From sequence record EF517021.1: DNA of 566 bases, one strand, 5' to 3'. The notes beneath the pieces are model-generated. The model searched no databases. It was not told the DNA's origin and worked only from the letters and a program-made list of their open reading frames with translations. Of this stretch, positions 2 to 566 are shown in pieces. This DNA comes from a phage. Position numbers and translations under genes: made by a program. The number at the start of each line of letters is the position of its first letter. The first letter of the stretch is position 1.

Positions 2-88
2 TGGGAAAAAGAAAACCCACCAGTACAAGCAACTGGGTGTATAGCTTGCTTAGAGAAAGATGACCGTTATTCACACACACCTGTAACA
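2..88 (+). CDS. 5'-partial ORF in frame 2, probable N-terminal extension of the gp1.7-like kinase long isoform, out of frame with the main ORF (possible frameshift remnant)
   Basis: Frame 2 is open from the window edge and translates WEKENPPVQATGCIACLEKDDRYSHTHL, ending at TAA 86-88. Frame 1 has TGA at 61-63 and frame 3 has TAG at 42-44, so frame 2 is the only open frame here. It contains a CxxC pair (TGT 38-40, TGC 47-49). Whether this is a separate small gene or a displaced N-terminus cannot be settled from this window. Confidence 0.45.
72..80. repeat. (CA)4 dinucleotide tract (cacacacac) at the frame-2 to frame-1 junction
   Basis: Directly visible: ca at 72-73, 74-75, 76-77, 78-79, then c at 80. 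It lies inside 64-85, the only interval open in both frame 1 and frame 2. Confidence 0.8.
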
Positions 89-94
89 AAGGAG
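88..94 (+). promoter_or_regulatory. Shine-Dalgarno ribosome-binding site (AAAGGAG) for the ATG at 103
   Basis: aaaggag at 88-94 is a near-perfect match to the anti-SD complement, with an 8-nt spacer (95-102, ctaacgat) before ATG 103-105. The frame-2 stop TAA 86-88 sits immediately upstream. Confidence 0.75.
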
Positions 95-102
95 CTAACG
101 AT

Positions 103-566
103 ATGACCGAACGTGAACAAGAGATGATTATTAAGTTGATAGACAATAATGAAAGTCGCCCAGATGATTTGAATGGCTGTGGTATTCTCTGTTCCAATGT
201 CCCTTGCCACCTCTGCCTCGCAAATAACGATCAAAAGATAACCTTAGGTGAAATCCGAGCGATGGACCCACGTAAACCACATCTGAATAAACCTGAGGTA
301 ACTCCTACAGATGACCAGCCTTCCGCTGAGACAATCGAAGGTGTCACTAAGTCTTCCCACTATATGCTGTTTGGCGACATTGAGGCTATCGAAGTGATTG
401 CTCGTTCAATGACCGTTGAACAGTTCAAGGGATACTGCTTCGGTAACATCTTAAAGTACAGACTACGTGCTGGTAAGAAGTCAGAGTTAGCGTACTTAGA
501 GAAAGACCTAACGAAAGCAGACTTCTATAAAGAATTCTTTGAGAAACATAAGGATAAATGTTATGC
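103..566 (+). CDS. 1.7: Phage T7 gp1.7-like nucleotide kinase (dTMP/dGMP kinase; DUF3310-type C-terminal domain); 3'-partial, continues past the window end
   Basis: ATG 103 with strong SD; frame 1 is open for 154 codons to the window edge. Translation: MTEREQEMIIKLIDNNESRPDDLNGCGILCSNVPCHLCLANNDQKITLGEIRAMDPRKPHLNKPEVTPTDDQPSAETIEGVTKSSHYMLFGDIEAIEVIARSMTVEQFKGYCFGNILKYRLRAGKKSELAYLEKDLTKADFYKEFFEKHKDKCY. Three parts: a Cys cluster (codons 26-38), a Pro/acidic linker (codons 55-83) and a C-terminal core (SHYMLF...KYRLRAGKK...DLTKADFY) that I recognise as the T7 gene 1.7 / DUF3310 family. Recognition is from memory, not a database hit. Confidence 0.85.
   Translation, partial: MTEREQEMIIKLIDNNESRPDDLNGCGILCSNVPCHLCLANNDQKITLGEIRAMDPRKPHLNKPEVTPTDDQPSAETIEGVTKSSHYMLFGDIEAIEVIARSMTVEQFKGYCFGNILKYRLRAGKKSELAYLEKDLTKADFYKEFFEKHKDKCY

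Follow-up and report, generated by a model that had tools for sequence, protein, structure and literature searches.

Gene 1.7 of bacteriophage T7, which NCBI annotates as a nucleotide kinase, lies between genes 1.6 and 1.8, and its product holds the DUF3310 domain (PF11753) at residues 122-184 according to Pfam. In the original prediction, made from the letters of the sequence studied here, it was noted that T7 gp1.7 is made as a long and a short form from two in-frame starts roughly 40 codons apart. The starts are indeed present in the T7 protein, as Met1 and Met42, 41 codons apart. In 2010, Tran and colleagues are said to have found that products of ~22 kDa and ~17.8 kDa are both made, that each of the two is fully active as a kinase, and that the C-terminal half of gp1.7 suffices for dideoxythymidine sensitivity. 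The masses computed here are 22,184 Da for the full-length protein and 17,711 Da for the form starting from Met42; the isoform masses reportedly obtained are 22,181 and 17,782, the second of which is ~71 Da off the computed value and has to be taken with caution. The phage tolerates complete deletion or replacement of the gene (PMC9712115, PMC7697293), and its product has been reported to activate the defence protein EfAvs5 (PMC11897194).

The 566-nt stretch of phage DNA analysed here (record EF517021.1, referred to below as the window) matches T7 (AY264774, positions 8190-8753) over its full length with 97.5% DNA identity, by which the kinase gene proposed for it is identified as T7 gene 1.7. 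T7 is also its nearest match, at the same identity, in megablast and blastn searches of 50,697 phage records. The window extends from codon 9 of gene 1.7 to the second-last codon, with the first four bases of gene 1.8 added, and the gene occupies the same position between genes 1.6 and 1.8. It shares with T7 the gene 1.8 neighbour, the internal Shine-Dalgarno sequence and ATG (T7 Met42), and the DUF3310 core. Unlike T7, it holds an extra CA at codons 32-34, which breaks the long ORF, and seven amino acid replacements, P32S in the N-terminal extension and six in the short form (G59S, P80L, P125S, D132G, A178T and L186F).

Another group closely related to the window is formed by records AY264775-AY264778, the chemically mutagenised T7 isolates K, K115, P and P82 (Bull et al. 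2003 J Mol Evol 57:241). They resemble the window in their near-wholly G:C>A:T divergence at a density of 1-2%, in star-like descent from T7+ and in the occurrence of small indels. They differ from it in that their gene 1.7 is in frame, no mutation is common to them and the window, and the window is the more densely mutated.

Alleles comparable to that of the window are found in two further sets of phages. Three Kayfunavirus isolates, LNA5 (MZ311861), SHAK9454 (OR594184) and vB_EcoP-R1 (OQ703102), share with it the +2 at this tract, a short upstream ORF with ...PHTPVIKELTI before its stop, and an intact short kinase ORF. Unlike the window, they belong to another genus, with ~27% kinase protein divergence and an independent origin of the allele, and they are environmental isolates with ordinary, non-mutagen-type divergence. 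The laboratory T7 mutants OL964748.1 and OL964749.1 (T7_1t2) have likewise lost the long start and the N-terminal module and kept the short form. The cause there is a 98-nt deletion reaching from the end of gene 1.6 to the inside of the CA tract, as opposed to the +2 insertion of the window. As a consequence, gene 1.6 runs on into ...TPVTKELTI, its stop being the very TGA that overlaps the internal ATG in the window, and OL964749 retains only the short gene 1.7 CDS. A literature search by accession found no paper on the OL9647xx T7 mutants. Positions of the features discussed are collected in Table 1.

Table 1. Positions of gene 1.7 features in the window and of comparable lesions in other phage records (the latter numbered within the locus taken from each record)
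Record	Feature	Position	Strand	Basis or remark
Window	Remnant of the long-form frame: T7 gp1.7 codons 9-31, then shifted SHTPVTKELTI and stop	2-106	+	Frame-2 translation, T7 alignment
Window	TGA closing the kinase frame (frame 1) upstream	61-63	+	Within GAT GAC in T7
Window	C>T beside the CA tract, Pro32>Ser in the T7 frame	71	+	C in all relatives
Window	CACACACAC tract, (CA)4 plus C, the frameshift lesion	72-80	+	T7 has CACACAC; net +CA
Window	Shine-Dalgarno sequence AAGGAG of the internal start, 8 nt before ATG	89-94	+	Kept in all relatives
Window	Short-form gp1.7 ORF, T7 Met42 onward	103-566	+	Open to window end, 1 nt short of the end of the last codon
Window	DUF3310 (PF11753), conserved kinase core	343-531	+	79.9 bits, E 1.4e-22
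Window	First bases of gene 1.8 (ATG 563-565), with the gene 1.7 overlap also found in T7	563-566	+	AY264774 annotation, alignment
MZ311861.1 (LNA5)	+2 locus	498-600		
OR594184.1 (SHAK9454)	+2 locus	529-630		
OQ703102.1 (vB_EcoP-R1)	+2 locus	529-630		
OX460914.1 (Milel)	2-nt deletion	~520-540		
OL964749.1 (T7_1t2); also OL964748.1	98-nt deletion	~400-430		

The CA tract and the two reading frames

Alignment with T7 places a net +2 exactly at the CA tract, where T7 reads TATC--CACACACC and the window reads TATTCACACACACC. In terms of codons, the T7 order TAT CCA CAC ACC TGT AAC is replaced in the window by TAT TCA CAC ACA CCT GTA AC, that is, (CA)3 has become (CA)4 and a C>T change is present immediately before it. 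The lesion is thus found where the original prediction had placed it, in a CA tract, and it cuts the kinase ORF off from the N-terminal extension. This is the sole tract of its kind in the window, and none of 200 shuffled sequences contains one. Deletion of one CA restores ...LEKDDRYSHTCNKGANDMTEREQ..., and the fusion of the two frames expected from such a removal gives the T7 gp1.7 protein except for P32S.

Some details of the frames turned out to be different from those first described. The upstream ORF had been said to stop at a TAA at 86-88; these positions read ACA, the TAA lies at 84-86 in frame 3, and the frame-2 ORF continues as ...DDRYSHTPVTKELTI until the TGA at 104-106, which overlaps the internal ATG as ATGA. 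Likewise, any join between the frames had been confined to 64-85, whereas both frames are open over 64-103, a correction that leaves the place of the lesion unaffected. The TGA reported to close frame 1 on the upstream side is present, and it does so because of the shift only, its bases lying inside two sense codons in T7.

In the window, the long-form frame and the kinase core are not joined in one continuous ORF. When the first eight codons of the wild type are added, the long-form product is computed to be a peptide of 42 aa, whose shifted tail TPVTKELTI is the conserved CNKGAND read out of frame. The expectation that the long isoform would end as a short Cys-containing peptide holds, with Cys21, Cys24 and His33 kept and Cys35 lost.

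The same state of the site can be followed among relatives by the distance between a GGRTGYAT anchor and the internal ATG. This distance is 71 nt in the window, and hence shifted, and 69 nt, in frame, in T7 wild type, isolates K and P, Yanou, 13a, HZ2R8, 3A_8767, SHAK7854 and Bia; in ESh3 it is 72 nt, also in frame. The frameshift is absent in T7 wild type, in isolates K, K115, P and P82, and in the in-frame natural relatives. As judged from these alignments, the +CA frameshift is derived on the window's side and looks real. Promoter and terminator scans around the CA-tract site gave results at chance level only.

The short form is left with an initiation site of its own, as had been predicted. 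The Shine-Dalgarno sequence stands at an 8-nt spacing before the ATG at 103-105, an arrangement present in only 1 of 200 shuffled sequences, and both the internal Met and the Shine-Dalgarno sequence are conserved among relatives. The short ORF is intact and keeps the full DUF3310 at its residues 81-143, with a score of 79.9 bits against a Pfam gathering cut-off of 24. Among its six replacements, P125S is located in the PSHY motif, where P125 is invariant in all 14 homologues examined, and because it hits this motif, full activity of the short form is not assured. Judging by the replacements, the short-form dTMP/dGMP kinase may therefore be impaired or not fully active. P125S (window position 352) and D132G (window position 374) are both located where DUF3310 begins.

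A 19-nt imperfect direct repeat is also present in the window, at 42-60 and 488-506, with 17 of 19 positions matching. One copy, in the N-terminal module, encodes ..CLEKDD.., and the other, close to the C-terminus, encodes ..YLEKDL..; T7 has the repeat too, and it may be due to chance.

Substitution spectrum and origin of the line

In addition to the inserted CA, the window differs from T7 by 13 substitutions, all of which (13/13) are transitions and 12 of which are G:C>A:T, the remaining one being A>G. This corresponds to a density of 2.3%, compared with 1.2-1.5% in isolates K and P. These two isolates, serving as positive controls over the same region, have exclusively G:C>A:T changes, 27/27 in isolate K and 21/21 in isolate P. 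In natural relatives (ESh3, 13a, Yanou and others), the ratio of transitions to transversions is ~1.3 and G:C>A:T changes make up 20-25% of the differences. Taking the natural proportion as p=0.25, the probability of at least 12 G:C>A:T changes among 13 is ~6e-7, and Fisher's exact test of the window's spectrum against that of ESh3 gives 3e-6.

The direction of change can be read from the relatives, which serve as the outgroup. T7 wild type has their majority state at 13/13 sites; therefore, all change occurred on the branch leading to the window, and T7+ acts as its direct ancestor. No mutation is common to the window and isolates K or P, and the window consequently represents an independent line. 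For the same reason, isolates K, K115, P and P82 were rejected as its origin.

A spectrum dominated by G:C>A:T is typical of mutagenesis by alkylating agents of the nitrosoguanidine type, as in the Bull/Hillis T7 lines. Nitrosoguanidine prefers a purine 5′ of the mutated G, and WRC is the AID-like context. A purine 5′ of the mutated G was found at 8/12 sites, which is not significant, and the WRC context at 6/12, which is not decisive, and because neither context settles the matter no specific mutagen is claimed. Going by the spectrum, the window very probably comes from a chemically mutagenised laboratory line of T7. Related to this, a passage in PMC8923235, citing Springman 2010, gives a rise of ~100-fold in the mutational load of T7 upon growth with nitrosoguanidine. 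Regarding the effect on the protein, 6/12 of the G:C>A:T changes are missense, compared with a share of 0.67 expected without selection (p=0.18), which fits relaxed constraint on a non-essential gene drifting at a high mutation rate.

In regard to the mechanism leading to such an allele, it was probably produced by slippage, as a +CA frameshift in a mutagenised laboratory T7+ line that lost the long gp1.7 and retained the short form. A laboratory T7+ derivative would have accumulated many G:C>A:T transitions under chemical mutagenesis, and replication slippage could have added one CA where codons Pro32-His33-Thr34 (CCA CAC ACC) make up a mini-repeat. Ribosomes starting at the long start would then go out of frame and stop after ~42 residues at the TGA overlapping the internal ATG, and the long isoform would be gone. 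The short isoform, from Met42 onward, would presumably continue to be produced, through direct initiation or through termination-reinitiation at the ATGA, the latter being conceivable because the upstream stop overlaps the short-form ATG. Such a change is an ordinary mutation in a non-essential gene and not a new mechanism. Gene 1.7, its two isoforms and its dispensability were already known, and a frameshift is to be expected in a heavily mutated laboratory phage, so that the allele carries little biological weight.

Alternatively, the extra CA could be a miscall introduced during sequencing or assembly, the real genome having (CA)3 and an intact long ORF. This is unlikely, yet it deserves weighing, given that no independent copy of the exact window sequence was found in the phage, viral, metagenome, genome-contig or protein collections searched. 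Although the lesion lies within a short repeat, an Illumina or Sanger error would not typically add two bases to a dinucleotide run of three units. Similarly, the second difference, C>T at 71, directly adjoins the lesion, as errors might, but it is of the same class as 11 other changes in the window. The +2 at the same tract occurs in three natural records from two laboratories, as +CA in LNA5 and vB_EcoP-R1 and as a CACACACG variant in SHAK9454. Mutagenised T7 lines are also known to acquire indels, as shown by a 3-nt deletion in gene 1.7 of isolate K.

Loss of the N-terminal module in T7-like phages

In all T7-group loci retrieved, the tblastn match to T7 gp1.7 spans the site in one frame. 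Most Kayfunavirus relatives also read through the site in one frame, and six records have secondary +2 or -2 lesions. In the phages that are in frame, codons 20-38 of the module include eight variable codons, all of them varying synonymously, and the N-terminal module is therefore under purifying selection where it is present.

The +2 lesions of Kayfunavirus are confined to LNA5, SHAK9454 and vB_EcoP-R1, which are the only ones among 219 records with the N-terminal module (3/219) to match the frameshifted peptide in tblastn. The tract reads CCACACACACC in vB_EcoP_LNA5 and vB_EcoP-R1 and CCACACACGCC in vB_EcoM_SHAK9454, and in all three the upstream ORF is MGCIACLEKDDRYPHTPVIKELTI, its TGA stop overlapping the internal ATG. 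The isolates stem from one laboratory in Brisbane and another in China. All large ORFs are intact in the LNA5 genome, which makes a generally error-ridden assembly unlikely. Locally, LNA5 is almost the same in sequence as SHAK7854, which is in frame, meaning that both states are held among the Brisbane isolates, with LNA5 and SHAK9454 carrying the +2 and SHAK7854 being in frame.

Two of the Brisbane records, OR594182.1 (SHAK7854) and OR594184.1 (SHAK9454), are marked UNVERIFIED, and their feature tables and sequences are out of register by ~2.5 kb. Annotation puts the nucleotide kinase at 8528-9064, while the gene is actually near 11099, and the features listed with a BLAST hit are misleading.

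The three remaining Kayfunavirus records with a lesion, those of the wastewater phages Milel, Emlis and Midid, have a 2-nt deletion that changes GAGAAGGATGAC to GAGAGATGAC. It is located elsewhere in the module than the CA tract, and it equally uncouples the long start from the kinase. Furthermore, one natural homologue (L017) starts close to where the short form does, and in-frame deletions within the module are present in others. Taken with the laboratory mutants OL964748 and OL964749, this means that the Cys/His N-terminal module is strongly conserved yet has been repeatedly lost, through lesions of several kinds, in T7-like phages from both the laboratory and the wild. That this conserved module has been lost independently more than once is the only mildly notable point of the locus, and it hints at a conditional role of the long isoform.

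For the CA tract itself, the most fitting description is that of a mutational warm spot within a dispensable segment. It could also be imagined that the CA mini-repeat acts across T7-like phages as a recurrent and possibly selected off-switch for the long gp1.7, which we consider improbable. If this were true, loss of the module with the kinase kept might be of help in some hosts, for example through altered sensing by EfAvs5.

More improbable still is a phase-variable contingency switch, raised as a speculation in the original prediction, in which the CA tract would slip both ways and toggle the long gp1.7 while the short form stays constant. The +2 arose independently at the same tract in the T7-line window and in Kayfunavirus, and near-identical Brisbane isolates hold both states; however, it is present in 3/219 records only, and no (CA)2 or (CA)5 alleles were seen among them, the lengths found being (CA)3 and the +2 alone. 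The tract has merely 3-4 units, and Tandem Repeats Finder reports no repeat there, whereas known contingency loci have much longer repeat tracts. The module is otherwise under purifying selection, and the repeat consists of nothing but the codons for Pro-His-Thr. Synonymous CAT or CCG codons interrupt the tract in many lineages, including 13a, Yanou, HZ2R8, 3A_8767 and T7 isolate P, and the CA repeat is therefore not maintained as such. The shifted frame of every +2 allele ending at the TGA that overlaps the internal ATG would suit a switch, and the reported activation of EfAvs5 by gp1.7 offers a conceivable selective reason for one, but the case for phase variation is weak when set against the composition and the length of the tract.

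That the N-terminal peptide and the kinase are two separate genes in the window's lineage, which had also been considered at first, is hardly credible. The overlap of stop and start as ATGA resembles ordinary translational coupling, and in vB_EcoP-R1 the kinase is annotated from the internal ATG. However, T7 is in frame and all differences from it are derived on the window's branch, and the relatives bearing the module, comprising all those examined of the T7 group and most of Kayfunavirus, are single-frame across the site, except for the six records in which the +2 or -2 lesion is clearly secondary. The supposed C-terminal end of the separate peptide is, moreover, the conserved kinase-frame segment read out of frame. 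An equally far-fetched possibility is recoding by a -1 ribosomal slip at A_AAG (88-91), a weakly shift-prone tetramer in E. coli from which the upstream frame would land in the kinase frame and restore the long isoform (...YSHTPVTK/GANDMTEREQ...), given that an X XXY YYZ heptamer is absent, the fold of 55-135 has z = +0.44 with 133/200 shuffles folding at least as well and no downstream structure, an Rfam search around the CA-tract site gave no match, and the two-frame layout is a recent accident unconserved among relatives. For annotation, this means that the locus should be entered as gene 1.7 disrupted by a frameshift that spares the short form, and not as two novel genes or a recoding site.

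Gene 1.7 homologues on six T7-like contigs from IMG/VR, L017 among them, are modular in their organization, and all of them are single-frame. Some lack the N-terminal CxxC...HxC module, others join this module directly to the DUF3310 core, omitting the middle Cys cluster, and one carries a Cys-rich insertion of 33 aa.
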